64,000 nucleotides of DNA from Minisyncoccota bacterium (GCA_036405895.1 DASWWS010000002.1:124029-188028); one strand, 5' to 3'; counted from the stretch's first letter, positions 1 to 21,836 are shown. The notes: a model not told the origin generated them from the letters alone. Numbers and translations are program-made.

Positions 1-207
1 GCTCTTTCCGCGCAAAGACGCATTCATGTCCATCATCATAGTTGCCATGTCTGAGCCGTCATTGTGCATCATAGTGCCGTCGGGCATCCTATGCTGCCCC
101 TGGTTAACGGCCAAAGATGCAGTATCCCCGCCCCAGATAATAAATCCTGCGAATACGCCGATAATAAGAGCTCCAAGTGCGCTGAATAGTGTTGTATGAT
201 TTTGCAT
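1..207 (-). CDS. Partial small membrane-anchored protein with a Met-rich tail (MQNHTTLFSALGALIIGVFAGFIIWGG...HNDGSDMATMMMDM...). Its C-terminus runs off the window edge.
   Basis: Translated by hand from the minus strand, ATG at 207-205. One TM helix, then an Asp/Met-rich segment reminiscent of Met-rich copper-binding motifs. Too short for the ORF track because it is truncated by the window edge. Confidence 0.3.
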   Translation of the reverse strand, partial: MQNHTTLFSALGALIIGVFAGFIIWGGDTASLAVNQGQHRMPDGTMMHNDGSDMATMMMDMNASLRGKS

Positions 208-248
208 ATTTTTAGAAGTTAAATAAATAATAAAAGAGCTTTTAAGGA

Positions 249-626
249 CTATGGCGCCTTGGGGTGAAGAATGCCTTGAGAAAAAAGGGTTGTTATGAAA
301 TTTTCACGACATGGCCTCGCATAGTAGCGATTCCTCGCAAGGTTCGGTGGATGAAGCAGTATGAAAAAGGAGACAAAAAAGAGTGGAACAAGAAGAAGCA
401 CTAGCTCCCCAACGGTTCCCGTTATAAGGTTTTTCCATGACACGACATGCTCCGTAAAATTCATTGCACAAAGAGAATGCTGTCCAACCATGAAGGGGCA
501 GTTACTCATGGAGCCCGTTGAGTGCTGATGGAGATATCCCGTAGCAAGAAGGCCGAATACGGCAAGGAATACATACCCTGCCAGAGCGAACGGTGCGACT
601 GTTTGCCTTAAAGCGTTCATATTCAA
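249..626 (-). CDS. hypothetical membrane protein
   Basis: ORF-track 125 aa with two hydrophobic segments. No recognisable family. Confidence 0.35.
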   Translation of the reverse strand: MNMNALRQTVAPFALAGYVFLAVFGLLATGYLHQHSTGSMSNCPFMVGQHSLCAMNFTEHVVSWKNLITGTVGELVLLLVPLFFVSFFILLHPPNLARNRYYARPCRENFITTLFSQGILHPKAP

Positions 627-657
627 ATTGTATCAGAAAAAAGAGTGTTTTCTTCAG

Positions 658-1110
658 TTACCACGCCGGATTCATATTTACTCCGAAACAAGACCAATAC
701 GGTGCATTGCTGTTGCACCCGGTATTTGGTTTTCCTTCAAAGTGCACGAACACCACATATCCTTGGCGATCTACCGTTGTCGCATATTGCATGCCGCAAT
801 TGGTTCCTAAAGGATCTACAGGATATGTAGGCAGGAGATTATTGGTCACCAGCGACTGCATAAAGTTATTATTAACAACCGTATACCCTTCGGTTCCCAC
901 ACATTCGTTTTCAGTGATGGGAGGATATGCGCCGTAGGTGTCATAATAGAACTCAAGCGCCGTCTGGATCTGCTTCATATCGGCGAGACGCCTTGTGTCC
1001 CGTGCTTTCACTCGAGCACTGTTGAGGCTCGCCATCACAACGGATGCCAAAATACCGATCACTGCGATGACTACAAGAAGTTCAATAAGAGTGAGCCCGC
1101 GGTTTTTCAC
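658..1110 (-). CDS. type IV pilin / pseudopilin with prepilin N-terminal cleavage-methylation motif
   Basis: N-terminus MKNRGLTLIELLVVIAVIGILASVV, the class III signal G/LTLIEL. Paralogous to the ORFs at 16537, 17000 and 17546. Confidence 0.8.
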   Translation of the reverse strand: MKNRGLTLIELLVVIAVIGILASVVMASLNSARVKARDTRRLADMKQIQTALEFYYDTYGAYPPITENECVGTEGYTVVNNNFMQSLVTNNLLPTYPVDPLGTNCGMQYATTVDRQGYVVFVHFEGKPNTGCNSNAPYWSCFGVNMNPAW

Positions 1111-1156
1111 AAAAGCAGTATACCGCAGCTTTGGGGGTTGTGGCAGTTTAGAGCCT

Positions 1157-1777
1157 TTATTCAGCAGGAGTGAAGAAGTAAACCGTTTTAAACATTACAA
1201 GTTCTTCATACATTTCATTTTCTACAACGTATTCTTTTCCAAACTGGTTTAGTTCGCTTAAATCAAAATTCTTTGGTATTTGCATTACGACTTTTTCAAA
1301 ATGTTTAAATGCAAGATCAAGTATTTCCTTTCCGGAAGGACTAAAATCTTCGAGAGTAAATTTCTCTTTTTGAGAATAATCAGGTCCGCCCCACGGTGGG
1401 GCTATGAACACTGCTTCCGCCTGAAGCTTTGGGGCTTCTTGGAAGTAGTCGCCAGTGATAAAAGTTACCTTGTCTTCAAGGCCATACACTCTAAGATTGT
1501 TTTTTGCCATTTCAATTCTTTGAGAATCAATTTCGATAGCATAGACATGCTCTGCGTGCTTTGCAAAACCGATTGTATTCCCTCCTATTCCGCAAAAGCC
1601 ATCTACTACAGTTCGAGCTCCGGTCTTTCGAGCATTCTTATCCGCAATATCTTCCGGTCCTACAGAATACAACCCTTCAATATCCGTCTGAATCCCCTCG
1701 TCAAATTTACTGAACTTGTTATATCTTCTGTCCCAGTATTTTTGATATTTTTCTCCAAAAGGATTTTCCTGTTTCAT
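1157..1777 (-). CDS. TGS1-like RNA cap guanine-N2 methyltransferase family protein (SAM-dependent)
   Basis: Motifs VVDGFCGIGGNTIGFA and IAPPWGGPDY match the TGS1/PF09445 signature. The ORF-track start at 1861 (MPPQAIY...) lies inside a repeated promoter-like element, so the internal Met (MKQENPFGEKY) is the more likely start. Confidence 0.6.
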   Translation of the reverse strand: MKQENPFGEKYQKYWDRRYNKFSKFDEGIQTDIEGLYSVGPEDIADKNARKTGARTVVDGFCGIGGNTIGFAKHAEHVYAIEIDSQRIEMAKNNLRVYGLEDKVTFITGDYFQEAPKLQAEAVFIAPPWGGPDYSQKEKFTLEDFSPSGKEILDLAFKHFEKVVMQIPKNFDLSELNQFGKEYVVENEMYEELVMFKTVYFFTPAE

Positions 1778-1812
1778 ATGTATAGTATACCAAAAGAGTT
1801 TGCGGAGTTTCG

Positions 1813-1950
1813 GTTTATAGTCGCTGTCGTTAAGAGACGAATAAATCGCTTGCGGAGGCATTATGTAGTCGCTAACGCTTCTTATAATGCACTGCGCAAA
1901 ATATGGTCGTATCTTCGATACTCCCTATTTTGCGGGCGTTGTGGCAGGAT
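1813..1950. repeat. 135-bp intergenic repeat, copy 1. About 90% identical to 3366-3500.
   Basis: Direct alignment of ...cgcttgcggaggcattat(g/a)tagtcgct(a/g)acgct(t/c)cttataatgcactgcgcaaaatatggtcg... It contains an 8-bp inverted repeat GCATTATA/TATAATGC and TATA(A)T boxes. At its distal end it carries a tRNA-3'-end-like core GCGGGCGTTGTGGCAGG. Confidence 0.8.
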
Positions 1951-1970
1951 GTTGGAACTTATTTAAGCAA

Positions 1971-2447
1971 CTACTCTTCTTTAAATATTCTAGAGTAATC
2001 AGACAACCCGGTATCTTTTAAGTCTTCTTCGATTAAATTCTTCGCTAAATCAAAATTTACAACAAAGCATAAAACTTCCATCGTACCACCCCCAATACTT
2101 CCTCCGTCACAATGACCCAAACCTCTCCATCCGAGAAATTCATTCATCCTACTTTCCAGATTGTGTCGCTTAGTCAAATCATTTTCTGATTCTATTTCAT
2201 CAACCTTGTATTCAATAACAAGCCTTTCTAAAAGTTCATCTGCTACTTCAGTATATCCCTCAATTATTTTCTGATCGTATTCTTTTTGAACTTCTTTTTT
2301 AAAACTTGAGAATATTCCTGAGCTGATTTCTCTCGATTGACCTTCTTCGCCAACCTTACCCCAATGAATAATTCCTGCTCTACCGCTTTTATCCCAAGTT
2401 TCCCAATAGAGTAAGCCGTCTCCAGTTTCTTTATATAGTTTTTCCAT
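1971..2447 (-). CDS. WGR-domain protein
   Basis: N-terminal LLYWETWDKSGRAGIIHWGKVGEEGQSREI...F.S...A...Y.QKIIEGY matches the WGR (W-G-R/K-x-G-x-x-GQ) pattern. The C-terminal ~90 aa has no known family. Confidence 0.55.
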   Translation of the reverse strand: MEKLYKETGDGLLYWETWDKSGRAGIIHWGKVGEEGQSREISSGIFSSFKKEVQKEYDQKIIEGYTEVADELLERLVIEYKVDEIESENDLTKRHNLESRMNEFLGWRGLGHCDGGSIGGGTMEVLCFVVNFDLAKNLIEEDLKDTGLSDYSRIFKEE

Positions 2448-2454
2448 GACAAAA

Positions 2455-2510
2455 TTATATCACGGTATAGCTGCGGGCGTTGTGGCAGAAGTTAGAATCT
2501 TTTTAATCAA
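2455..2510. repeat. Partial copy of the intergenic repeat and tRNA-3'-end-like core (GCTGCGGGCGTTGTGGCAGAAG)
   Basis: Shares CTGCCACAACGCCCGCA with the distal end of repeat copy 1. Confidence 0.6.
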
Positions 2511-2531
2511 TTCCAAATTCTAATAACCTTT

Positions 2532-3335
2532 CTATTTAAAAACCGTATCAATCTCTTTCACCAACCAGCTTCCGAGATTCTCTAGAGTATCCACTATTGT
2601 ATTTTTGTCAGAAGTTGGATTAACGGCAAGCTCTAACGCTTTGTACATTTCTTCCTTTTTCTCTGGATAGTATTTTGAGAATTCTTCATAACAAGGATAG
2701 AGGTCGCGTGTGTATTTCTGGGACCGTTCCATCACAAGCTCAAACCCTGAACGTATAATACGCTTCATAATCCAAGTACATCGACGCTTTATCTCTTCTT
2801 CACTACGCTCTTCTTGCAACCACTCTTTCGTCTTATTGATTTCTCGTTCGATGCCTTCAAAATGTTGAGCTGTATCTACGCCCGGCTTTAGAGCCGGAAG
2901 AGTACTAAAAAGATTGTTACCGTACACGCAGATACTTTGGGTCTTGATCATTATTCGATCCCCTTTCGAGTCTGGTATCTCTTCAAGTGGTACGACGCCT
3001 ATTTCTACTCCGACTATAAATGGAAATTGTTTCTTTACTTTTTCTACAAAATCTTTTGACCATTGGATATCAACGTCATCGTATGACACTGTAACAACAG
3101 CGAAACTGTCTATGTCGGAGATGTTGTTTATCGCTTGCCCCTTCGCTACCGAACCTCTTATATAGACACTGTGCAAATGTTCACCAAGGTGTTTTTGATA
3201 TGCATCTTTGACCATTTCAACCGCGGGCATCCATGCCGCCTGAATCTTTTCTGGTGATGTAGTATTGACGATAAAACCATCGGTATCAGTTTGCAAAAAT
3301 GATCCAATGGCTTGTACTTCGTTTTTCATGTCCAA
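2532..3335 (-). CDS. Nucleotidyltransferase of the aminoglycoside-adenylyltransferase (ANT/AadA-like, NTase + DUF4111-like) family
   Basis: YIRGSVAKGQAINNISDIDSFAVV matches the GS-x9-DxD Pol-beta-superfamily NTase motif. Size and C-terminal helical domain resemble AadA/ANT(9). No experimental basis for the substrate. Confidence 0.65.
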   Translation of the reverse strand: MDMKNEVQAIGSFLQTDTDGFIVNTTSPEKIQAAWMPAVEMVKDAYQKHLGEHLHSVYIRGSVAKGQAINNISDIDSFAVVTVSYDDVDIQWSKDFVEKVKKQFPFIVGVEIGVVPLEEIPDSKGDRIMIKTQSICVYGNNLFSTLPALKPGVDTAQHFEGIEREINKTKEWLQEERSEEEIKRRCTWIMKRIIRSGFELVMERSQKYTRDLYPCYEEFSKYYPEKKEEMYKALELAVNPTSDKNTIVDTLENLGSWLVKEIDTVFK

Positions 3336-3365
3336 ATTGTATCATGGGAAAGCTGCGGAGGTGGG

Positions 3366-3500
3366 TTTATAGTCGCTCTCGCTAAAAACAGAGTGGGTCG
3401 CTTGCGGAGGCATTATATAGTCGCTGACGCTCCTTATAATGCACTGCGCAAAATATGGTCGCACCTACGGTGCTTCCTATTTTGCGGAGGATGTGAGACG
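3366..3500. repeat. 135-bp intergenic repeat, copy 2, upstream of the NTase gene. It ends in a 15-nt copy of the 3' end of the adjacent tRNA (3484-3498).
   Basis: Aligned to 1813-1950. The distal core gcggaggatgtgaga is identical to the reverse complement of the tRNA 3' end at 3694-3708. Confidence 0.8.
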
Positions 3501-3693
3501 CTGAGCTATTCGCCCGCGAGTCTTTGTTTGATCAGTCACCAAACAAAGCTCTGGGCACCGGCTCAGTAGATTCTTCTGCTGAAGAATCATACTTCCGCCG
3601 TTCTCATCTCAACGTAAACCAAAGCAGTTTGGTTTACTCATCCTCCGCGAATAAAAATGGCCCAGATTTCTCTGGGACGCATTTTTATACTCG
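3501..3693. ncRNA. Structured ~190-nt tRNA-associated module A. It consists of a closing stem, three internal hairpins and a bidirectional terminator hairpin.
   Basis: Homologous to 4399-4579. Its hairpins covary with the second copy: GATTCTTC-TGCT-GAAGAATC vs GATTTCTT-TGCTA-AGAAATC, and GTAAACCAAA-GCAG-TTTGGTTTAC vs GCAATGCA-GTT-TGCATTGC. The terminator inner stem reads CCCAGA..TCTGGG here and CCGACC..GGTCGG in the other copy. The two ends are complementary: GCGGAGGATG..CATCCTCCGC. Confidence 0.5.
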
Positions 3694-3779
3694 CGGAGGA
3701 TGTGAGATTCGAACTCACGGGCCTTTAAGGGGCCGACGGTTTAGTAAACCGTTGATTTAAACCACTCATCCAATCCTCC
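3694..3779 (-). tRNA. Type-II (long variable arm) tRNA, Ser-like. The apparent anticodon is ACU, which is unusual.
   Basis: Hand-folded: acceptor GGAGGAT/ATCCTCC, T-arm GTGAG-TTCGAAT-CTCAC, variable arm GGCC-CCTTAAA-GGCC, anticodon stem ACGGT/ACCGT with loop TTACTAA. Discriminator G. No encoded CCA. Confidence 0.65.
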
Positions 3780-3833
3780 AGGACACCAATAAGTGTTTTG
3801 ATATCCTACCATACTCGCCTAAATAGAAAAGAA

Positions 3834-3868
3834 AACAGCCTAACGAGGACCGTCCTCGTTAGGCTGTT
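3834..3868. terminator. GGACNGTCC-core palindromic hairpin (AACAGCCTAACGAGGACCGTCCTCGTTAGGCTGTT) followed by TTTTT
   Basis: Perfect inverted repeat with a T-run. Member of a dispersed family listed in findings. Confidence 0.75.
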
Positions 3869-3880
3869 TTTAAGTACGTA

Positions 3881-4312
3881 TTAGTACTGAGGCTGAGGCT
3901 CGTGCTTCATCAAGCGCATCAGGTGCGAAAGCGAGTATCGGCCGGGACCCTGCACCAAAAGCGGGATGAGGGCTGCAATGAATACGAGGTTCACTTCCCA
4001 TCCGCCGAGGAATTCCATGTTCATCAAATTCTTTACAACAAATGCAGCAACAATCATGACAATAATAAGGAGGAATGAAACAATCTCGGTTCCAATACCC
4101 ACAATGAGCGCCAGACCGCCGATTGTTTCAACAAGCGTCACAATCCATGCCATGAGTCCCGCAAGCGGGAATCCCCATGCAACGAAGCCTTCCGTTACCG
4201 CCTCAATCCCCATGTTGAACTTCTGCAAGCCATGAAGGAAGAAAGCAATACCGACAATAATGCGGACAATCAACAGCGCTGTATTTATTTTGCCTTTGAA
4301 TATATTTCTCAT
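3881..4312 (-). CDS. DoxX-family integral membrane protein
   Basis: 143 aa with four predicted TM helices. LHGLQKF...GG motif typical of DoxX. Confidence 0.6.
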   Translation of the reverse strand: MRNIFKGKINTALLIVRIIVGIAFFLHGLQKFNMGIEAVTEGFVAWGFPLAGLMAWIVTLVETIGGLALIVGIGTEIVSFLLIIVMIVAAFVVKNLMNMEFLGGWEVNLVFIAALIPLLVQGPGRYSLSHLMRLMKHEPQPQY

Positions 4313-4345
4313 GTACTAAAGTGTATCACTGATAGGTATAACAGA

Positions 4346-4376
4346 AAACTAGCAAGGACGGTCCTTGCTAGTTTTT
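4346..4376. terminator. GGACGGTCC-core palindromic hairpin (CTAGCAAGGACGGTCCTTGCTAG) flanked by A/T runs
   Basis: Inverted repeat seen directly. Confidence 0.7.
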
Positions 4377-4398
4377 TATTTTTGCGGAGACGGCGAGA

Positions 4399-4579
4399 AT
4401 TTCTCCCTCGCCTCTCGTTGTGTCAGACACACTTCCTCGGGCTGGTCACCAGCTCAGTAGATTTCTTTGCTAAGAAATCATACTTCCGCTGTTCGAATCT
4501 CACCCGCAATGCAGTTTGCATTGCTCGTCTCCGCGAATAAAAATGGCCCGACATTAGGTCGGACTCATTTTTATACTCG
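4399..4579. ncRNA. Structured tRNA-associated module B, homologous to 3501-3693. It is bounded by a 15-nt copy of the tRNA-Ser 3' end at 4384-4398.
   Basis: See module A. Closing stem GCGGAGACG...CGTCTCCGC. Minus-strand T-arm-like GCGAG-GGAGAAATT-CTCGC. Terminator hairpin at 4531-4582. Confidence 0.5.
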
Positions 4580-4664
4580 CGGAGACGGCGAGATTCGAAC
4601 TCGCGAGGCTGTGACACCTGCCTCCTTAGCAAGGAGGTACAATCGACCACTCTGACACGTCTCC
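4580..4664 (-). tRNA. tRNA-Ser(GCU)
   Basis: Hand-folded: acceptor GGAGACG/CGTCTCC, anticodon stem CCTCC/GGAGG with loop TTGCTAA (anticodon GCT), long variable arm, T-arm GCGAG-TTCGAAT-CTCGC. Confidence 0.85.
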
Positions 4665-4725
4665 AGTACCGCCACTGTATCATGAAAATACAGTTTTTTA
4701 AAGACTACCCTGCTATACTCTATAC

Positions 4726-5025
4726 ATGACCACTACACACAAAGTACTTGTTGGAATTCTTATCATTATTGTTATTGCGCTTCTTGCGCGCTACGTTGTT
4801 TTTAAAGAAAAGTTCGATGAATGGGGTGCAGGACTCCAGCGTATTGAAGACTGGCAGACTGAGTACAAGCAAAAGAACCCAAATGCTTCCAAAGAAGAAA
4901 TGGATGCTGCATTTGAAGCTGGCATGGACAACATCACTGAGTGGAAAGCAGAGTATAAGCGCGATAATCCAGGCGCGACAGATGCCGAGGCGGATGCTGC
5001 ATTTTCCGCAATGTGGAATAACTAA
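4726..5025 (+). CDS. Small membrane-anchored protein with an internal ~28-aa duplication
   Basis: One N-terminal TM helix. Repeats EDWQTEYKQKNPNASKEEMDAAFEAGM and TEWKAEYKRDNPGATDAEADAAFSAMW. Confidence 0.45.
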   Translation: MTTTHKVLVGILIIIVIALLARYVVFKEKFDEWGAGLQRIEDWQTEYKQKNPNASKEEMDAAFEAGMDNITEWKAEYKRDNPGATDAEADAAFSAMWNN

Positions 5026-5041
5026 TTCTATTTACTGATAT

Positions 5042-5626
5042 ATGCAACCAACCGGAAAAATTCGACTTGAGGCATTCAGCGACGGAGTATTCGCTATTGC
5101 CATCACGCTCCTTGCGCTCGAGCTCCATGTCCCCGCCTTTCTTGGGACCACTTTCTTAGGTTCTCTCCACGAACTCATCCCACTGATTCCTTCAATGCTC
5201 ACCTTTGTACTCTCATTTATCACCATTGCAATCTTTTGGGTCAATCACCACCAGCTCACCCAAAACTTTAGCACCATCACCAAGCGGCGCATTCTTTGGT
5301 CAAATATCCTCTTTCTCCTCTTCTTAACCCTCATCCCCTTTGTTACCGCTGCCGTAAGCATCAGCCCGACTGCGCCCTTAGCAGTATTCTTCTACAGTTT
5401 AGTATTGCTTGGTTCATCGCTCTCCTTCACCCTTATGCGCTATTTTGTGCACAAAGGCTGCGGCCAAAGCCATATCCCCATGACCCGTAGCCTCATTGGA
5501 CCAATCGTGTACCTCCTTGCGGTTATTGCTTCGATTTTTTCAGTCTGGATTGCCTATTTTCTCCTTGCTATCCCGGCATTATTCTATTTCCTCCCAAAAG
5601 GGAGCCTCAAAGAGACAGATGAGTAG
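5042..5626 (+). CDS. TMEM175/DUF1211-family putative potassium channel
   Basis: Starts RLEAFSDGVFAIAITLLALE, the family signature, with six predicted TM helices. Confidence 0.7.
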   Translation: MQPTGKIRLEAFSDGVFAIAITLLALELHVPAFLGTTFLGSLHELIPLIPSMLTFVLSFITIAIFWVNHHQLTQNFSTITKRRILWSNILFLLFLTLIPFVTAAVSISPTAPLAVFFYSLVLLGSSLSFTLMRYFVHKGCGQSHIPMTRSLIGPIVYLLAVIASIFSVWIAYFLLAIPALFYFLPKGSLKETDE

Positions 5627-5727
5627 TCCCCATATCTATTTTTACTCAGTCGTGTTATAGTGGAAAAGTTGTAATGTGCTCCTTTGTTAAAGGTCCGTTG
5701 CAAAATAATAGTAAGTAACAACCAATA

Positions 5728-6027
5728 ATGAACAATAAAGTATTCGTCGGTAGCCTCTCATTCAATACCGACCAGAATGGATTAGCAGCATACTTCGCTT
5801 CAGTCGGCACTGTAACAAGTGCAAACATCATCACTGATAAGATGACTGGACGCAGCAAAGGTTTCGGCTTCGTAGAATTTTCTTCTGACGCTGAAGCTCA
5901 GGCTGCTGTTGATAAACTCAACAACACTGAACTCGACGGCCGCACACTTTTCGTTGACCTTGCACAGCCTCGCGCTGACAAGCCAGCAGGTGGCAACCGC
6001 GAGCGCACTGGTGGCTACAACCACTAA
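5728..6027 (+). CDS. RRM-type RNA-binding protein (glycine-rich C-terminus)
   Basis: RNP-2 VFVGSL and RNP-1 KGFGFVEF motifs. Confidence 0.85.
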   Translation: MNNKVFVGSLSFNTDQNGLAAYFASVGTVTSANIITDKMTGRSKGFGFVEFSSDAEAQAAVDKLNNTELDGRTLFVDLAQPRADKPAGGNRERTGGYNH

Positions 6028-6034
6028 TCCTCCA

Positions 6035-6062
6035 AAAAACCAGTCTTCGGACTGGTTTTTTG
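6035..6062 (+). terminator. Intrinsic terminator AAAAAACCAGTCTTCGGACTGGTTTTTT
   Basis: GC hairpin plus T-run immediately after the RRM gene. Confidence 0.8.
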
Positions 6063-6118
6063 TTTGCACAGGTTTTTCTATTATTTTCCTTCCCTTGCCG
6101 TGATACACTACTTATACA

Positions 6119-6600
6119 TGAATCGACACATCATCAAAAACACGCTCTTTGCACTGGTCAGTATCATTTTTCTTCTCAGCGCTATAGGAAAGTTTGCCGA
6201 CCGCGAGGCAATTGTCGAACTCTTTGCCAATGCTGGCATGGCAGACTATCTTATCCGCTTTGCAGTGATACAGCTGATTATTGTTGCGTGCCTGTGGTAC
6301 AAGCCGCTTCGCAGTCTTGGGGTATTGGTTGCAAGCGCATTCCTCGGAGGGGTGATTGTCATGATGATTAACACAGACTGCAGCCCTCTCTCGGCAGGAC
6401 TCACACTTATCATGCTGTGGATCGCGTACAAGCTTGAATGGTGGGGATACTGGAATCACTACACTGACACCTGTTCCTGCGGGTGGTGCAAGCTCCATGG
6501 AAAAGGGAAGGGCAAAAAAGCCGTCTGCCCCAATCCAAAAGACGAATGCGACTGCGGCAACCACTGTAAATGCCCCAAGGGCAAGTGCACCTGTTCGTAA
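6119..6600 (+). CDS. DoxX-like 4-TM membrane protein fused to a C-terminal Cys-rich metallothionein-like tail
   Basis: The internal start MNRHIIKNTLF is preferred because the terminator ends at 6062. The tail CSCGWCKLHGKGKGKKAVCPNPKDECDCGNHCKCPKGKCTCS has 10 Cys in 42 aa. Confidence 0.5.
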
Positions 6601-6622
6601 TTGTGCGCTACAATAAAAGAAT

Positions 6623-8794
6623 ATGACGCTTGAGTCACCTATCGAAACATTGATCCGACTCAAGGAAGATACCCGAGCCGGCCTTCGCCGTTTGGGTATT
6701 TTTTCTGTGCGCGACCTTTTGTACCACTTCCCCACCCGCTATGCAGACGCAAGTATCTTTACTTCCATCGCAGGCCTGGTCGAAGGCGAGACGGCGACTA
6801 TCCGCGGAACCGTGAAAAAGATTGCCACGAAGAAATCATGGAAGACAAAAGTCCCTATGAGCGAAGGCGTGATCGAAGACATGAGCGGCACCATTACGGT
6901 TGTATGGTTCAATCAGCCATACTTGGCGCGCATGATTCGCACAGGAAGCGTCGTAGAGCTCACTGGAAAAGTCACGCTTTATAAAGACATGCCGGCATTG
7001 GTAAACCCCACCGCGCGCGAAGAGCGCGTGATGCCGATTGATAGCCACGACTCTTTATTTGGCACAGGCGACGCAAATGAGGGTGGAGTGTTGACGCCGG
7101 TGTATGCCGAAACAAAAGACGTATCGAGTTTGTGGTTCTCCCACACGATAGCGCGAGCACTTTCCACGCTCGATAGTATTCCCGACCATATCCCCAACAC
7201 CCTTCTTGAGCAATACTCACTACCAAGCCTCAAGACTGCGCTCATTTGGATACACAGCCCCAAAAACCACAACGATGCAACAATTGCGCGCAAGCGCTTT
7301 GCATATGACGAGATCTTTTCCATCAATGTTGCCCGCGCGCAAGAACGGTTGCGGGTAAAAAGTCAGCGTGCCTACTCTATCGATATGAGCACCATTGATA
7401 TGAATTATTTTTTAAAGCGCTTTTCTTTTCCTCTTACCACAGCGCAAAACTCTTCCATTGAACACATTCTCAAGGACCTCGAACAAGATGTGCCGATGTC
7501 GCGCCTCTTAGAAGGCGATGTAGGCAGCGGCAAAACCGCAGTTGCAGCAGTTGCAGCATATGCAACCGTCATGAACCGTCCGAGCAACTCTGGAAAAAAA
7601 CAAACGTTTGGAAACCTCCAAGTTGCATATATGGCGCCAACAGAGCTTTTAGCAACGCAGCACTTCGAATCCTTCATCGAGCTTTTTGAAGGAACGGGCA
7701 TTTCGCTTGCGCTCATCACCGGAAGCGGCTGCCGCAAGTATCCGAGCAAGGTCGCGTCGAACACAAAAGGATGGACCACTATTTCCCGCGCCCAGCTTTC
7801 AAAATGGATCGCGAACGGCGAGATACCGATAGTGATCGGCACGCACACGCTCATTCAAAAATCCCTTACCTTCAAGCATCTCGCACTCGCCATCATCGAT
7901 GAGCAGCACCGCTTCGGGCTCAAGCAGCGCCAGGGCCTCGCAAAAAAAGACACGCACTTCCCTCACTTGCTTTCAATGACTGCAACTCCCATCCCGCGCA
8001 CACTTGCACTAACCTTGTACGGCGACCTTGATCTCTCAGTGCTCGACGTATTGCCGGCGGGGCGCAAAAAGATCGAGACCTCGCTCGTCACCATTGATAA
8101 GCGCGAAGCAATGTATGAGGCCATCCGCGCCATTCTTAAAGAGGGCCGGCAGCTTTATGTCATCTGCCCGCGCATCGGCGACCCGGATCCGGATAAAGCA
8201 AAAGCAATACAAGCAAAGTCGGTAACAACAGAAGCGGTGCGCCTCCAGAAAGAAGTCTTCCCGGAATTCCGCATTGGTGTACTGCACAGCAAAATGACGA
8301 AAGAAAAAAAGGAGGACGCCATGAAAAGCTTTGCCAATCATGAAACCGATATATTGGTTGCAACAAGTGTGGTTGAAGTCGGGGTAAACGTGCCGAACGC
8401 AACCCAAATAATCATCGAAGGTGCCGAGCGCTTTGGGCTCTCCCAGCTTCACCAGCTTCGCGGCCGCGTTGCGCGCTCAAGCTACCAGGCGCACTGCTAT
8501 TTGTTTGCGGATGCAAAAACCGAGCGCACGCTCGAGCGCATGAACTATTTCCTGAAAGCAGAGGACGGTTTTGCGCTCGCCGAGTACGACCTCGCAATGC
8601 GCGGTACCGGCGAACTTACCGGCACCAGCCAGTGGGGCATCTCCGACATTGGCATGGAGGCGCTTCGCAACATCAAGCTTGTCGAAGCTGCGCGGCAAAG
8701 TGCGCAGGCGCTTGTTGCAAGCGATCCGACATTGGCCGACCACCCCCTCTTGGTTGCAATTGTTTCCAAATACGAAACCATGCATTTTGAATAA
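6623..8794 (+). CDS. recG: ATP-dependent DNA helicase RecG
   Basis: 723 aa. DEQHRFG and helicase motifs. The N-terminal wedge region resembles RecG. Confidence 0.9.
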   Translation: MTLESPIETLIRLKEDTRAGLRRLGIFSVRDLLYHFPTRYADASIFTSIAGLVEGETATIRGTVKKIATKKSWKTKVPMSEGVIEDMSGTITVVWFNQPYLARMIRTGSVVELTGKVTLYKDMPALVNPTAREERVMPIDSHDSLFGTGDANEGGVLTPVYAETKDVSSLWFSHTIARALSTLDSIPDHIPNTLLEQYSLPSLKTALIWIHSPKNHNDATIARKRFAYDEIFSINVARAQERLRVKSQRAYSIDMSTIDMNYFLKRFSFPLTTAQNSSIEHILKDLEQDVPMSRLLEGDVGSGKTAVAAVAAYATVMNRPSNSGKKQTFGNLQVAYMAPTELLATQHFESFIELFEGTGISLALITGSGCRKYPSKVASNTKGWTTISRAQLSKWIANGEIPIVIGTHTLIQKSLTFKHLALAIIDEQHRFGLKQRQGLAKKDTHFPHLLSMTATPIPRTLALTLYGDLDLSVLDVLPAGRKKIETSLVTIDKREAMYEAIRAILKEGRQLYVICPRIGDPDPDKAKAIQAKSVTTEAVRLQKEVFPEFRIGVLHSKMTKEKKEDAMKSFANHETDILVATSVVEVGVNVPNATQIIIEGAERFGLSQLHQLRGRVARSSYQAHCYLFADAKTERTLERMNYFLKAEDGFALAEYDLAMRGTGELTGTSQWGISDIGMEALRNIKLVEAARQSAQALVASDPTLADHPLLVAIVSKYETMHFE

Positions 8795-8795
8795 A

Positions 8796-8826
8796 AAAGC
8801 CACACAATATTACTGTGTGGCTTTCT
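8796..8826. terminator. Bidirectional terminator AAAAAGCCACACAATATTACTGTGTGGCTTTCT between convergent genes
   Basis: Hairpin flanked by A-run and T-run. Confidence 0.7.
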
Positions 8827-8835
8827 CTCATTGTG

Positions 8836-9372
8836 TTACTTAATGAGAGTAATAATTTGTCCTTTTGGTACAGGAATCGTAACAATGTGCGATACCCCTG
8901 TATCAAGGTTTCGGTACTCGGCCGTGAGCTCAACGCTTGAGCTCATCTTATTTTCCATTGCCGTACTAATGTCGCTCGTGACAAGAACTTTTTGTGTTCC
9001 ATTTTTGTTTGTGTCGAACGATGAAAAATCAGTACCGCTTTGGGTAGCAACGCGCTTAGACGTGCTCGTTCCTCCCAATGTTACTGCGGACTTAATTGCA
9101 CTGTATGCGATAGGGATTGATTCTTCTTGAAGAAATCGCACCCGGCAAAATAGTGTAATCTCCACATTCTCAGGATTGTTGATCGTTAGATCTCCGGCAA
9201 ACATAAGAATGCCGGCCTGAGGTGTTTTCACTTCAGCGTCGTCATAGGTAGTGCTTTTCTTAAATGAAAATGTCGGCGCCTGAAATGCAGGTTCAACATA
9301 TCCTTCTTCCTTTTCGCAGCTTGTAGCGAAAAACAGGGTTGCCGCCAGGGCGCATAACAATACATTTTTCAT
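8836..9372 (-). CDS. Lipoprotein, hypothetical
   Basis: Signal peptide with lipobox ATSC. Confidence 0.55.
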   Translation of the reverse strand: MKNVLLCALAATLFFATSCEKEEGYVEPAFQAPTFSFKKSTTYDDAEVKTPQAGILMFAGDLTINNPENVEITLFCRVRFLQEESIPIAYSAIKSAVTLGGTSTSKRVATQSGTDFSSFDTNKNGTQKVLVTSDISTAMENKMSSSVELTAEYRNLDTGVSHIVTIPVPKGQIITLIK

Positions 9373-9576
9373 GGTCTATTTAGTTTTTATGGTTCAAATT
9401 TACTTTGTTTATTTTTTATATTATATCACTTTATTTATAAAAAGTCAATAGAGCTCCTCTGCCTAAAAATTGTCTTTTACGTCAGGACTGATAGAATCAA
9501 AGGGTTCTCATTTCCGCTCTTAGCTGTTTGGTGTACGGGCCAAGCAAGGTAGGGGTTATAGAAAATCAATATACTT

Positions 9577-9650
9577 CCGCTCTTAGCTCAGTTGGTTAGA
9601 GCGCCGAGCTTATACCTCGGTGGTCCATGGTTCGAATCCATGAGGGCGGA
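9577..9650 (+). tRNA. tRNA-Ile(UAU)
   Basis: Hand-folded: acceptor CCGCTCT/AGGGCGG (one G-U pair), D-arm GCTC-AGTTGGTTA-GAGC, anticodon stem CCGAG/CTCGG with loop CTTATAC, T-arm CATGG-TTCGAAT-CCATG. Confidence 0.8.
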
Positions 9651-9744
9651 CATTAAGTAAACAAATATGCAGTATGCCTCTGAGGCAATGGCGTGTAGCG
9701 TTTCGACCCCAGGGAGAGGCGGACAAGTGCTATACTGTACACAT

Positions 9745-10215
9745 ATGAATGAATTTGTAGCAAAGAAACTCGGCGAAGTGCTCGCCTTTAACCAAGTCGG
9801 CACGGACACCTATGAAAAAGGAAAAGAAGCACTCATCGCAGTACTGGGAGCTGAACGTTTTGCGGATATTGAAGACAAGAACCGCATTCACGGAGAAGCA
9901 GTGATGAAGATCGCGACCGACGCGGGCATGATCGACACAACGCTTGCAAAAGCCGAAAAGACCGGAGAGAAGCTCAAGGCTATGCGCGACCTCTATGTTG
10001 GTGACCAATGGGACAATGCCACAGAGCTGATGGAATGGAGCGGATTTTTCGAAGGCGCAGCAATCGTGCACTGGGCGCTGGTGCGCGGTGCGGCAGAAGG
10101 CATGAATGACGAAACCCTCCTCGAACTTTCAAACGAAGGAGTGAATTGGCACTATGAGCTTTTGGAAATGGCTGAAAGCGAACTCGGCACCACCGGACAG
10201 AACAAGGCTTCCTAA
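9745..10215 (+). CDS. Hypothetical protein
   Basis: The ORF-track start at 9667 overlaps the tRNA, so the internal Met (MNEFVAKKLGEV) is more likely. No family recognised. Confidence 0.45.
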   Translation: MNEFVAKKLGEVLAFNQVGTDTYEKGKEALIAVLGAERFADIEDKNRIHGEAVMKIATDAGMIDTTLAKAEKTGEKLKAMRDLYVGDQWDNATELMEWSGFFEGAAIVHWALVRGAAEGMNDETLLELSNEGVNWHYELLEMAESELGTTGQNKAS

Positions 10216-10219
10216 TAAT

Positions 10220-10281
10220 CAGAAGGACCGTCCTTCTGAAAATAAAAACAACCTAACGAGGACCGTCCTCGTTAGGTTGTT
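10220..10281. terminator. Two tandem GGACCGTCC-core hairpins (CAGAAGGACCGTCCTTCTG and AACAACCTAACGAGGACCGTCCTCGTTAGGTTGTT) between convergent genes
   Basis: Perfect inverted repeats, the second followed by TTTTT. Confidence 0.75.
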
Positions 10282-10289
10282 TTTATTGT

Positions 10290-12188
10290 TTAAAGCTCGA
10301 TTTTCTTTAATGGAATGCCGTGAGCGGAAATAATTGCTTCATATTCCGGCTGTTCGAGCGTTTCCACTTCGATTAGCTTTGCGGTGATTGCTTCGAGCAC
10401 ACCCTTGTGTTCGGTAAGAACAGTGCGGGCACGCTCAAATCCTTCTTTCATGATGCGCTGCACTTCGGAGTCGACAAGTGCACTAGTCTGCTCTGAATAT
10501 TCTTTTCCTTTCACTCCTTCGCCGAACATTGCGCGGCCTCCGTCGTTTTCAAGGGCAAGCGGGCCGATGGCATCGCTCATCCCCCATCGTGTCACCATGG
10601 CGCGTGCAAGCGCGGTTGCAACCTGAAGGTCGTTTGAAGGACCGGTTGTCACGTCCCCAAAGATTGATTCTTCTGCAACGTATCCTGCAAGCGACATTGC
10701 AATGTCGTCGAGATATTCTTTCTTGGTGGTAAGCTTTCGCTCTTCAAGCGGAAGCTTCAGCGTGTACCCACCGGCGCGCCCTCGTGCAACAATAGAAACT
10801 TTGTGCACCGGGTCAGCATCCGGAAGAACTGATGCAACAAGCGCATGCGCTGCTTCATGATACGCCGTGATTTTCTTTTCTTTCTTTGTCAGCAAATGGC
10901 TCTTGCGCTCAGGCCCGATCATCACTTTTTCAATGGAGCGTACAAGGTCAAACTGCGATATCTTCTTTCGATTTTCGCGTGCTGCCAAGATTGCACCTTC
11001 GTTCATTAATGAGTAGAGGTCGGCTCCGGAGAATCCGGGTGTGCGCTCTGCTATCACCTTGAGATTCACGTCTTCTGCAAACGGCTTTTTGGTGCTGTGC
11101 ACATTCAAAATGTCTTCGCGGTCGCGACGGTCTGGAAGGTCAAGCATCACTCGGCGGTCAAATCGGCCTGGACGCAACAGTGCTGGGTCCAATACATCGC
11201 TTCGGTTCGTTGCCGCCATCACGATTACCTTGTCGTTCGGTTCAAAGCCGTCCATCTCCACCAATATTTGGTTGAGTGTCTGTTCTCGCTCGTCGTTTCC
11301 ACCGCCATATCCGCCTCCGCGTACGCGTCCTACCGCATCAATTTCATCGATAAAAATAATGGACGGTGCTGCGCGCTTTGCCATCTTGAAAAGGTCGCGC
11401 ACGCGCGATGCGCCCACACCGACAAACATCTCAACAAATTCTGATCCTGAAAGATGGAAGAACGGCACACTTGCCTCCCCCGCTACAGCGCGAGCCAAGA
11501 GCGTCTTCCCTGTTCCTGGTGCACCGGCGAGCAATACTCCTTTTGGAATGCGCGCTCCGATATCCAAAAACTTTTTTGGATTCTTCAAAAAGTCCACAAT
11601 TTCTTTGAGTTCTTCCTTGGCTTCGCGCGCACCTGCAACATCTTTGAATGTTACCCTGTTTGTCGTATCGCTTGGGTCAGTGATGCGCGCTTTTGACTGC
11701 CCGAAATTAAATGCCTGCATGCCAGCACCCTTTGCCTGGCGTGTAAGCATCCAAAAAAAGAATCCAATCAATACTACCGGCAAAAGTATTGGGAGAATGG
11801 TAAGGAAAAAGAATGCGAGGCCTGATGCGCTGGCAACAGTAATGTCGACTGCGCTGATGCGAGGCTCTTCAACACCATATGCTGCCAATGTTTCCACCAA
11901 TGAAGCACTTGGTTCTTTTTTGCTTTCAAGAATTGTCTCGTCTGTTTTTGTAACAGTGAGCGCTTGGTCGTCGATGACAATGCTCTTCACCTCCCCTGCC
12001 TGCACAAGGCGTGCAACTTCTGAAAGGGTCACCACTTCGTTCTTTTCTGTCCCCATACCAGAGACAACAGAGTAGCCGGCAGTAAGGAGTGCGAAGATAA
12101 GGAGGGTTGAAAATATATAGGAAGAAAGAGAGCGCTTGGGAGGCGTCTTTTTTATAGGGTTCGGTGTAGGGATTTCTTGTTTGGACAT
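10290..12188 (-). CDS. ftsH: ATP-dependent zinc metalloprotease FtsH
   Basis: Walker A GAPGTGKT, second region of homology, and HEAAHA zinc motif. 632 aa. Confidence 0.95.
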
Positions 12189-12455
12189 AGGCTTTATTAT
12201 ACATAAAAACGATAAAAACGCCTTTTAGGGGGTATCGACCTCCAGGTTACTAAATATTTTTCAGGGTATCGCCTCACAAATCACTAAGCATAATTCTTCG
12301 CTCCACTCGAATTCTGCCAAGTGTTCGCGAGCCCGGCTCGGTTCCGCCATAGGCGGATACCTGCGCCTTTTCGATACCCACGCAAGACAAGCAGTTGCCC
12401 TGTTCCATCTCCACCTAAAAAACAAAAAACGCCCAAGGGCGCTAATGTTGTTACA
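12189..12455 (-). promoter_or_regulatory. Structured region between ssrA and ftsH with TATAAT 7 nt upstream of the ftsH ATG, repeated CGATACCC motifs, and the ssrA intrinsic terminator (12423-12446)
   Basis: Minus strand reads ...GCGCCCTTGGGCGC-TTTTTTGTTTTTT, a terminator. Three CGATACCC motifs follow. GTATAATAAAGCCT then ATG. Confidence 0.5.
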
Positions 12456-12841
12456 GGTGGAGATGGGGGTATCGAAACCCCGTGCAAATGATCACGAACA
12501 AGTACTTCTCCATGCGTAGTACGATTTAATTGTTAAGACAGAATCTCAAAACCGTACAAAACGATTCATGTCCGAGCCTCGATTGTTTCGGAGTACTGAC
12601 GAGACACGCAGTACTTCCTACGTTCGATGAATGTTGCCGCGACTACGTTATCGAACATCACGTAGAGCGACACCGGATTGACCTAAATTTAGGCGAATGC
12701 CGGAGCGAAGTTTCCAAAATATGGAGACTTCACTGATGCTGTGCTGTTGCCAGGTAAGCGTTCGGACGAATTTTACGAGATACGTCCATTCTCGGCATGC
12801 ATACAGGCCCGATACATCAAATGTCGAAACCTTTCATCCCC
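12456..12841 (-). ncRNA. ssrA: tmRNA (ssrA)
   Basis: Minus strand 5' end GGGGAUGAAAGGUUUCGAC matches the tmRNA 5' consensus. The GCAUGCCGAG...CUCGUAAAA PK1 region is almost identical to E. coli tmRNA. A tag reading frame ends ...GNFAPAFA-UAA (stop at 12689-12691). The 3' T-arm-like GGGGT-TTCGATA-CCCC is followed by acceptor strand CATCTCC-A-CC, which pairs with the 5' GGGGATG using one G-U. It is adjacent to smpB. Confidence 0.8.
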
Positions 12842-21197: not shown

Positions 21198-21836
21198 TTA
21201 TTTCTTCTCTTGTGGAGCTACAGGAGCTGCTACAAATGTTTCTGCTGGCTTAGGAGCCGTGAACACGTGCTTAGTGCTGATAGTAGAAAGTGCCTTCATC
21301 ACCGCGCGCGCTGTGTTGAGCTTGTTCTTGCTTCCTGAAATTACTTTCCCTGAAACGTCTTTGAGTCCTGCGATAACAGCGATGTCGCGAAGTGCTGCAC
21401 CTACTACAAGCCCCTTACCATTGTTTGGGAAAAGCATCACCTTGCTTGAAGTGTACTTTGCATTCACATCGTGAGGAATAGAGTGCTTCTCTGTGCGCTT
21501 GATTTTGATTGCGTTTTTCTTTGCATCCTTGAGAGCCTTTGCAATAGCGAGGGCTGTGTCATTACCCTTCCCTGTTCCAACACCAACCACTCCGAGAAGC
21601 TTGTCTCCGATAATCATAGAAACGGCAAAACTCATACGGCGACCACCTGCAACCACGCGAGTAACTCGGCGGATATCAAGAATTTTTTGGTCAACGTCTT
21701 TTACGCGCTCTGTAAACGGTTTGCCGTCACGGCGAGGTCCGCGAGGACCTGAGCCACCTGCACCACCAGTGCGAGGACCGCGGCTTTGGTAGCTTGATGT
21801 GTTTGATGGAGTTGTAGGTGTAGTAGGTGTAGTCAT
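21198..21836 (-). CDS. rpsE: 30S ribosomal protein S5, with low-complexity N- and C-terminal extensions
   Basis: Core RVTRVVAGGRRMSF...GVGTGKG. N-terminal Thr/Pro/Gly-rich extension. Confidence 0.9.
   Translation of the reverse strand: MTTPTTPTTPSNTSSYQSRGPRTGGAGGSGPRGPRRDGKPFTERVKDVDQKILDIRRVTRVVAGGRRMSFAVSMIIGDKLLGVVGVGTGKGNDTALAIAKALKDAKKNAIKIKRTEKHSIPHDVNAKYTSSKVMLFPNNGKGLVVGAALRDIAVIAGLKDVSGKVISGSKNKLNTARAVMKALSTISTKHVFTAPKPAETFVAAPVAPQEKK

Follow-up and report, generated by a model that had tools for sequence, protein, structure and literature searches.

In staphylococcal cassette chromosome (SCC) elements, each insertion regenerates a usable site, and elements without a recombinase stand in tandem with complete ones, separated by short repeats (SCC background in PMC3146451). 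Composite and pseudo-SCC arrays arise by serial insertion at the 3' end of one conserved protein gene, rlmH/orfX, through the large serine recombinases (LSRs) CcrAB and CcrC, and consist of elements of tens of kb. In Dehalococcoides, ssrA genomic islands (ssrA-GIs) lie in tandem downstream of the transfer-messenger RNA (tmRNA) gene and are bounded by repeats of its 3' end and, next to these, by a conserved motif showing no alignment to the gene. Their integrase is a CcrB-like LSR encoded on the reverse strand beside the left attachment site (attL), with an annotated 3' end that may extend into the RNA gene, and islands without a recombinase have been interpreted as cis-mobilisable elements (McMurdie et al. 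2011, PMC3146451). In Prochlorococcus, tRNA genes seed islands in which newly arriving tycheposons push older elements inward; these islands contain scattered partial tRNAs and degraded elements, and a minority of the elements carry LSRs (Hackl et al., 10.1101/2020.12.28.424599). For the Patescibacteria (Candidate Phyla Radiation, CPR), whose genomes are tiny and whose route of gene gain is poorly known, we found nothing specific in the literature on tRNA-linked elements. Here we describe an islet of ~2.6 kb (1131-3692) directly 3' of the tRNA-Ser(ACU) gene in a 64,000-nt stretch of DNA (the window) from a Minisyncoccota bacterium (GCA_036405895.1 DASWWS010000002.1:124029-188028). It holds three single-gene units, encoding a putative nucleotidyltransferase (NTase), a WGR-domain protein and a TGS1-like methyltransferase, together with two kinds of hairpin module that we call E and R. 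We consider it probable, with some reservation, that the islet arose in a Paceibacteria/Nomurabacteria-like genome through successive site-specific insertions at the tRNA-Ser(ACU) 3' end.

As in the ssrA-GIs, the closest published case, the insertions stand in tandem right after a tRNA-like gene, boundary repeats of the target's 3' end are accompanied by an extra motif, and an LSR gene in one related locus (L117) overlaps or adjoins the RNA gene on the reverse strand next to attL. Unlike in the ssrA-GIs, the target is tRNA-Ser(ACU) and not tmRNA, the junction lies after the discriminator base and C74 and not in the T-loop, and the units are single genes of 0.5-0.9 kb as opposed to islands of 10-30 kb. 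The islet also differs in its patescibacterial host, in the interleaving of hairpin modules E and R with the units and in that no second, DsiA-like recombinase was seen. Serial insertion at the 3' end of one conserved gene is also seen in SCC arrays, whose repeats, however, are near-identical integration sites and not a half-site 5 bp longer than the target. With tycheposons the islet shares a tRNA-seeded position and the proposed outward displacement of older elements. In contrast, tycheposons are mostly multi-gene tyrosine-recombinase elements with genuine partial-tRNA repeats, many of them with replication modules, and miniature single-gene units with a distinct conserved end motif have not been described for them. 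In outcome the islet resembles an integron, as an ordered stack of single genes of miscellaneous function at one site with the recombinase presumably encoded elsewhere, whereas integrons use the tyrosine recombinase IntI, folded palindromic attC sites and mostly promoterless cassettes expressed from the promoter Pc. The islet differs from all of these systems in its host lineage, its tRNA-Ser(ACU) junction, its miniature self-promoted units, the 27-nt end and its 5-bp offset, and the hairpin modules placed between the units.

Read in gene sense on the minus strand, the first module starts at 3692 and the order is tRNA, E1, R-A, NTase unit, WGR unit, R-B, methyltransferase unit and the promoter of a pilin-like gene (Table 1). 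The last 22 nt of the tRNA (3693-3714) are GTTCGAATCTCACATCCTCCGC, and all insertions begin right after ...CCGC. Each module likewise opens right after ...CCGC and closes with its own ...CCGC, the end copy of the methyltransferase unit being degenerate (...CCAA). Two exact copies of a 16-nt core, GCGGGCGTTGTGGCAG, lie at 1932-1947 and 2473-2488, and a third copy, at 1131-1146, carries 3 mismatches; three matches compare with 0.29 expected, and none of 100 shuffles reached three. This core is part of a 27-nt motif, GTTCCAACATCCTGCCACAnnGCCCGC (gene sense), which closes single-gene units in three other genomes or metagenomes. The WGR unit ends in the canonical form (1932-1958, GTTCCAACATCCTGCCACAACGCCCGC), the NTase unit in a copy with six changes (2473-2499, GATTCTAACTTCTGCCACAACGCCCGC) and the methyltransferase unit in a degenerate 26-nt copy (1131-1156, AGGCTCTAAACTGCCACAACCCCCAA). 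The motif occurs nowhere else in the window and is not a hairpin.

The original prediction had described three minus-strand genes separated by 135-bp repeats with tRNA-3'-end-like cores, and read them as cassettes serially integrated at a tRNA site. The separation of the genes by repeats and cores at a tRNA was borne out, with two ~130-bp repeats and three core copies. The cassette reading also stands in outline, as the islet is variably present, consists of discrete units and has an LSR element at its junction in relatives. Its boundary details had to be redrawn: the boundary is the 27-nt motif at unit 3' ends and not the 135-bp repeat, as R occurs at only two junctions. A partial repeat copy claimed at 2455-2510 consists of the core with a ~11-nt 3' extension and does not share the 130-bp repeat.

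Table 1. Features of the islet and its flanks, in window coordinates
Feature	Coordinates	Strand	Basis
R-A, 129-nt hairpin module (copy 2 of the original prediction)	3355..3483	minus	repeat family; alignment; two conserved hairpins; junction table
R-B, second hairpin-module copy, 130 nt	1802..1931	minus	repeat family; alignment; fold
E1, 209-nt non-coding structured element	3484..3692	minus	sequence; repeats; minimum free energy -99.2 kcal/mol
E2, 195-nt E-family member	4384..4578	minus	follows tRNA-Ser(GCU) (4579-4664); terminal repeat 4384-4398
NTase unit	2473..3354	minus	ORF 2532-3329 (265 aa), ATG at 3329; Pfam NTP_transf_2 below cut-off; motif scan
WGR unit	1932..2472	minus	ORF 1971-2447 (158 aa), ATG at 2447
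Methyltransferase unit	1131..1801	minus	ORF 1157-1777 (206 aa), ATG at 1777; TGS1-like
tRNA-Ser(ACU), target gene, intact	3693..3779	minus	ARAGORN; Rfam tRNA 55 bits; orthologues in 13 related loci
Type IV pilin-like gene	658..1110	minus	Pfam N_methyl; homologue adjoins tRNA-Ser pair in L010

The left ends of the gene units are short, reading /AGCT.. or /AAAC.. (the slash marks the junction), followed by a -10 box only 6-7 nt ahead of the start codon. The box is TGATACAAT in the NTase unit (6 nt before the ATG), an extended -10 box, TGATATAAT, in the WGR unit (7 nt) and TATACT in the methyltransferase unit (6 nt). The three gene modules are thus self-sufficient, and the position of the boxes so close to the start codons suggests leaderless mRNAs. 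The same arrangement, a -10-like box ending 6-7 nt before the start with no Shine-Dalgarno sequence, was seen for all four of the methyltransferase, WGR, NTase and pilin genes (minus strand, 1778-1790, 2448-2462, 3330-3344 and 1111-1125, respectively). Own -10 boxes set the units apart from promoterless integron cassettes. Single-gene units in one orientation with short conserved sites between them are what a true integron cassette array would look like, and yet we give this explanation almost no credence: IntI, attI and Pc are all missing, a tRNA end anchors the array, which is flanked by tRNA/E1 and the pilin gene, and the sites are 27 nt long without an imperfect palindrome or GTTRRRY and RYYYAAC cores, whereas attC sites are imperfect inverted repeats of 57-141 bp.

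As for the cargo, the assignment of the methyltransferase as TGS1-like was confirmed (Pfam Methyltransf_15, PF09445, 118.6 bits vs a cut-off of 22; human TGS1, PDB 3GDH, E = 3.6e-44). The WGR domain passed its Pfam cut-off only just (22.4 vs 22 bits) and is therefore borderline. An ANT/AadA-like identity of the NTase drew no support from Pfam, NCBIfam or PDB sequences: NTP_transf_2 scored 18.7 bits, under the Pfam cut-off of 21, NCBIfam gave no match, and the best PDB match was a generic NTase domain (E = 0.036). When the NTase and WGR proteins were looked up by exact match, every contig retrieved was identical to the window.

We compared the islet with roughly 120 related (non-viral) loci, labelled by L numbers and containing 221 tRNAs. 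After the orthologous tRNA-Ser(ACU), 13 relatives carry other, unrelated content, so that the synteny comparison proposed earlier found the block variably present. G+C content is also lower in the islet (36-42% across 1200-3200 vs 45-55% around it). In Candidatus Nomurabacteria UBA5155 (L009), whose RecG is 71% identical, the orthologous tRNA-Ser(ACU) is followed by an array of a Polbeta-type NTase, a cupin and a methyltransferase, each closed by the 27-nt motif (three copies, 1-3 mismatches). Apart from the motifs, the methyltransferase unit (80%) is the only part of this array with nucleotide similarity to the window, and the similarity breaks off at the boundaries of the unit. In L092, two motif copies, one split by a 49-nt insert, flank a small opposite-strand gene, and in L103 a divergent copy, GTTCCAATATCGCTCCAGCCGGCCAGC, stands ahead of a unit. 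An exact metagenome scan with GTTCCANCATCCTGCCACA returned 16 stretches, only one of which (L092) was clearly related; L085-L087 share this 19-mer but not the rest, and the remaining stretches look like chance. Exact IMG/VR scans gave 0 matches for the motif, chance matches only for CTGCCACANNGCCCGC and 98 mostly chance matches for TTCGAANGCCGGAGC.

A methyltransferase 77% identical to that of the window was found in an array after tRNA-Gln(CTG) (L109/L110), whose junctions mimic the 3' end of that tRNA, reading ...GGGCAGCC/CTGTTACA as compared with ...TCGGGCAGCCA in the tRNA itself. The same cargo can therefore sit at different tRNAs, with boundaries that follow the resident tRNA. Units in these arrays (L109 3002-6930 and L110 1-3600) encode Methyltransf_23, peptidase S8, TGS1-like methyltransferase, NUDIX and kinase-like proteins and are separated by repeats such as GTTACAGGGCAACC/CTGTTACA. 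Methyltransferase homologues in L104, L106, L108 and L115 lack the motif, and some thus lie in ordinary contexts. In L104 (9926-10624), a 64%-identical homologue, with tsaD after it, begins at the final base of tRNA-Val(GAC).

An autonomous element occupies the same junction in the UBA5155 population, which comprises a variant without (L100/L101) and a variant with (L099/L102/L107) a 9.1-kb insertion. The empty site reads ...ATCCTCCGC/CGCTACTTT, and the tRNA end followed by the Polbeta unit reads ...ATCCTCCGC/CGCTACTTTAGGG. With the element in place, attL is ...ATCCTCCGC/AAAGTGAGAATATTAG (also given as ...ATCCTCCGC/AAAGTGAG) and the right attachment site (attR) is GTTCTAACAGCCTCAACAGTCCGCCGC/CGCTACTTT; the reconstructed phage-type site (attP) is GTTCTAACAGCCTCAACAGTCCGCCGC/AAAGTGAGAATATTAGTCTC.... 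The element sits at the exact CCGC/ junction, and its right end is framed like the cassette motif, with GTTCNAA followed by 20 nt ending in CCGC. It encodes a 569-aa LSR, P0031 (Resolvase and Recombinase domains), convergent with the tRNA and ending ~12 nt from it, as well as an AAA_25 protein, a MerR/HTH_17 protein, YaaC, PP2C and tRNA-Arg. In L117, a 71%-identical LSR abuts tRNA-Ser(ACU) at ...CTCTCCGC/AGAG, and in L021 and L022 LSRs with zinc-ribbon domains are encoded 1-3.5 kb downstream of tRNA-Ser(ACU). The P0031 family has >1000 members, few of them with a source name, mostly Patescibacteria. The recombinase, which the original prediction had allowed to be of either the tyrosine or the serine type, is likely to be an LSR. 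Simple patterns revealed neither the far end of the LSR element in L117 nor P-type (attP-like) arms near the LSRs of L021, L022, L008, L040 and L020.

Two further observations concern these recombinases. TTTAGTATC occurs within ~20 nt after the tRNA-Ser 3' end in L021 (~4030-4048) and L040 (~5965-5984), both with a serine recombinase nearby; the same sequence has been reported as the zinc-ribbon-domain motif of the Listeria A118-family integrase, although its orientation here fits poorly and the match may be a coincidence. L116 (10001-21779) encodes a 79%-identical LSR, P0033, among two LSR genes that are each preceded by an HTH_17 gene; a D5-type primase, a DNA methylase and an SNF2 helicase are encoded as well, and no tRNA is close by. 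L116 may represent a member of the P0031 family that is free or integrated in a different way.

Comparison of the junctions showed a constant offset. GTTCNAA lies 22 nt from the junction in four tRNA arms, where it is the T-loop sequence GTTCGAA, and 27 nt from it in six element arms; CCGC is common to all junctions. In LSR attachment sites, the motif bound by the zinc-ribbon domain lies 5 bp further out in attP than in attB, the bacterial site (PMC3783163). Because the 5-nt offset equals this published shift, we read the 27-nt motif as a putative P-type half-site of the LSR family and the T-loop-to-acceptor segment of the tRNA as the corresponding putative attB half-site. The core GCGGGCGTTGTGGCAG fits better as the inner part of such an attP-type half-site, which exceeds the tRNA arm by 5 bp, than as the 3' end of another tRNA, as had been suggested: none of the 221 tRNAs in the related loci ends in ...GCCACAACGCCCG, and a second tRNA is unnecessary under the attP reading.

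If so, crossover would take place inside CCGC during LSR-catalysed integration, and each new arrival would land beside the tRNA, displacing older units outward. The methyltransferase unit, common to the window and UBA5155, would then be the oldest, because new arrivals land tRNA-proximal. The recombinase would be supplied in trans or would since have been lost. Since attL- and attR-like sites would not serve a canonical LSR as substrates, the array could grow only if unit left ends rebuilt an attB-like right arm or if larger elements were trimmed. Several unit left ends share GCTAY...TATAAT with the sequence after the tRNA in UBA5155.

Several points weigh against this account. Canonical LSRs neither recombine attR-like junctions nor integrate into attL, so that the mimicry or deletion just mentioned has to be invoked. 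No recombinase was found in the window, in line with the original prediction: tblastn with the LSR gave no match, and none of 20 mid-size window ORFs contained a recombinase domain (15 had housekeeping Pfam domains and five had no match; coverage was not exhaustive). Conservation is limited to the left, P-type arm, while the right arms vary and have no evident dyad symmetry, which is atypical of a complete LSR attP; inspection of the right arms by eye only gave no convincing inverted copy of GTTCNAA. As the six P-type arms are partly homologous, the 5-bp offset amounts to perhaps two or three independent observations. R, at 130 nt, and any sub-units of it are too short to circularise as LSR substrates. 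Finally, the perfect 15-nt copy of the tRNA end that closes E1 would sooner be expected of a tyrosine-integrase identity block or of some other mechanism.

Some of these features would also be expected if the units were fossil scars, that is, immobile remnants of larger recombinase-bearing islands whittled down by deletion, with the 27-nt motifs as functionless leftover attR arms. The confinement of conservation to the P-type arm, the variable right arms, the degeneracy of two of the three window motif copies and the lack of a detected recombinase in the window all agree with such an origin, and remnants of this kind are found in the analogous islands of Dehalococcoides (PMC3146451) and Prochlorococcus (10.1101/2020.12.28.424599). 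We nevertheless regard it as unlikely, if a serious contender. Random deletion should leave ragged ends, whereas left boundaries are precise, with R at ...CCGC/AAAATAGG twice and the gene units at /AGCT.. plus a -10 box. The motif has also been kept across species whose RecG is only 71% identical, and the neighbours of the methyltransferase unit differ from array to array. Repeated site-specific insertion remains the reading we prefer. Overall, these data suggest that tRNA 3' ends serve Patescibacteria as docking sites for the stacking of very small self-expressed modules, probably by an abundant LSR family. If the 27-nt motif and the tRNA arm were a working attP/attB pair, they would provide a compact natural recombinase/att pair for a lineage without genetic tools and would allow the accessory genome of these organisms to be mapped by a simple sequence signature. 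Together with the Dehalococcoides ssrA islands, they would make two examples of tRNA-like genes as targets of serine recombinases.

R is a separate insert at two junctions and not a unit-boundary element. R-A begins right after ...CCGC and itself ends in ...CCTCCGC, and the left boundary of both copies reads ...CCGC/AAAATAGG. The long repeats at 1812-1943 and 3364-3495 are 83% identical ungapped over 132 nt (BLAST, 82.5% over 143 nt), less than the ~90% given originally, and a 27-mer within them, TATAATGCACTGCGCAAAATATGGTCG, has exactly two occurrences in the 64 kb vs 0 expected. In gene sense, R folds into two hairpins (z = -3.3 and -2.7). Hairpin 1 spans the ...CGC/AAAATA junction, and its apical stem pairs GCACC with GGTGC in R-A and GTATC with GATAC in R-B, a difference of two compensatory pairs. 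Hairpin 2 has the arms TTATAA and TATATAAT; the promoter-like arrangement TTATAA-N16-TATATAAT noted earlier thus exists but is itself the two arms of a hairpin, and the inverted repeat reported as 8 bp is present with a length of 9-10 bp. We also considered a division of R into two mini-units of 79 and 49 nt, each ending in AGCGACTATA..CTCCGC.

Promoter-like hexamers within R, the terminator-like score of hairpin 1 on the plus strand and the own -10 box of every gene could be taken to mean that the locus is ordinary regulatory DNA without mobility, in which the 130-bp repeat is a promoter, operator or terminator and the 27-nt motif a 3'-UTR (untranslated region) or terminator signal. This is very improbable. 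Neither R nor the motif occurs elsewhere in the window, and R is also absent from the related loci and gave 0 matches in an exact-match IMG/VR scan with its core, so that a general upstream promoter, the outcome that would have told against cassettes, was not borne out. Moreover, the motif is not a hairpin and flanks an opposite-strand gene in L092, the block is missing from relatives, and a mobile element closes with the same frame at the same site.

E1, the first module after the tRNA, belongs to a family of 130-210-nt elements located directly after tRNA-Ser, tRNA-Gly and tmRNA genes. Members share a plan that begins with a terminator-like hairpin and a stretch that complements the acceptor 3' strand of the RNA upstream, continues with an 8-10-bp hairpin whose CTGC loop is invariant and whose stem covaries completely between members, a complement of the T-stem 3' strand plus TTCGAA, and an inner helix with a GGA/GA internal loop and a long hairpin, and closes with a direct 15-18-nt copy of the upstream RNA from the T-loop to the 3' end. 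E1 follows this order, with hairpin H1 carrying the CTGC loop and an interior domain before the terminal copy, 3484-3498 (gcggaggatgtgaga), which equals the exact last 15 nt of tRNA-Ser(ACU). The original prediction had seen this 15-nt repeat as a core of the adjacent tRNA used by repeat copy 2; the repeat is real and belongs to the end of E1. The fold architecture of E1 matches that of E2 and of elements in L025, L068 and L031, and H1 and P2 each show covariation. Both target-derived segments are retuned to the host RNA (Ser-ACU, Ser-GCU, Gly-UCC and tmRNA), as seen in E2, whose end segments are adapted to tRNA-Ser(GCU).

A further member lies in the window after the tmRNA gene (12455-12841, minus strand; Rfam 108.7 bits, missed by ARAGORN), where a strong terminator is followed by an E element (~12230-12425, minus strand) with a degenerate 3' copy of the tmRNA end; its position is conserved in three species. 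The 5' segment of this element carries an A in the position of G3 of the tmRNA G3.U70 pair, which shows that it complements the 3' strand and does not copy the 5' strand. Elsewhere, members were found in L025 (7609-7791), L068 (~6060-6226), L031 (7196-7366), L007 (~21320-21560), L013 (~12526-12760) and L118 (2850-3260). The last is an IMG/VR contig with two tandem copies and was the sole real E-family locus in an exact scan with GCGAGGCGGGGTCGCGA. Rfam had no family for E, R or the motif and returned tRNAs and tmRNA only (1-12000 in E-value mode, the whole window, five related loci and L118). E as a tmRNA, a Y-RNA-like RNA, a retroviral-type primer-binding site, a T-box or a bridge RNA was rejected for lack of the defining features, because there is no tag, no pseudoknots, an A3-U70 in place of a G3.U70 pair, no CCA complement and no adjacent recombinase. 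The E elements, as a conserved structured family absent from Rfam with outer helices that copy the neighbouring tRNA or tmRNA, are the more unusual side finding.

E1 and R would be non-coding hairpin modules inserted at the same type of junction, possibly by another mechanism. Extended to the whole islet, this would mean a different chemistry, either a tyrosine recombinase acting on the T-loop-to-3'-end block or an HUH- or Xer-like single-strand route via folded hairpins that pair with the target, with the LSR merely sharing the hotspot. In IS200/IS605 family elements the end equals the target, and modules that both follow and end in ...CCGC resemble them. The exact 15-18-nt tRNA-end copies and internal complements of E, retuned to each host RNA, and the junction-spanning hairpins of E and R with their compensatory changes point in the same direction. 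We judge such a chemistry improbable for the islet, as neither a tyrosine recombinase nor an HUH gene was seen in the window or beside any array, the gene units lack terminal hairpins, the unit end varies with the resident tRNA (as in the tRNA-Gln arrays) and is not a fixed short target, and the sole autonomous element seen at the junction encodes an LSR. A bolder version of LSR-driven insertion, which we think doubtful, would combine a patescibacterial integron-like system, with a tRNA 3'-end platform, an LSR acting in trans and self-promoted leaderless units bearing the 27-nt P-type half-site, with an undescribed target-homing E family. In it, E (130-210 nt) would regenerate a tRNA-like landing site through its target complement and copy, and could chain, as in L118.

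The islet lies in a core chromosomal setting. The nearest relatives of the window's RecG (6623-8794) are from Patescibacteria metagenome-assembled genomes labelled Candidatus Nomurabacteria or Paceibacterota (87% to ~40% aa identity), and the remainder of the window encodes ribosomal proteins, EF-Tu, SecY, NusA, trigger factor and glycolytic enzymes. On the minus strand, tRNA-Ser(GCU) (4664..4579) is followed by E2, a terminator, DoxX, a second terminator, tRNA-Ser(ACU), the islet and the pilin-like gene, which is probably the native distal flank and outside the islet.

Displaced tRNA fragments seem unusually common in these small genomes. In ~20 of the 221 tRNA genes of the fetched loci (L003-L117), the 3' 14-mer is repeated downstream, mostly 40-400 nt away, and L062 contains repeated tRNA copies with two small hairpins inserted in the T-loop (GGGTTCGCCC..GGGCGCC..GGCGAATCCCACC). 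The target tRNA is itself of note. A tRNA-Ser with the anticodon ACU (A34), paired with tRNA-Ser(GCU), is conserved across the Nomurabacteria-like clade, with orthologues in L006, L007, L009, L010, L015, L018, L021, L022, L026, L029, L030, L031, L035 and L117, and more distant relatives have Ser(UGA) and Ser(GCU) near recG in place of this pair. Reading of AGY codons by A34, modified or not, would be unusual for bacteria.

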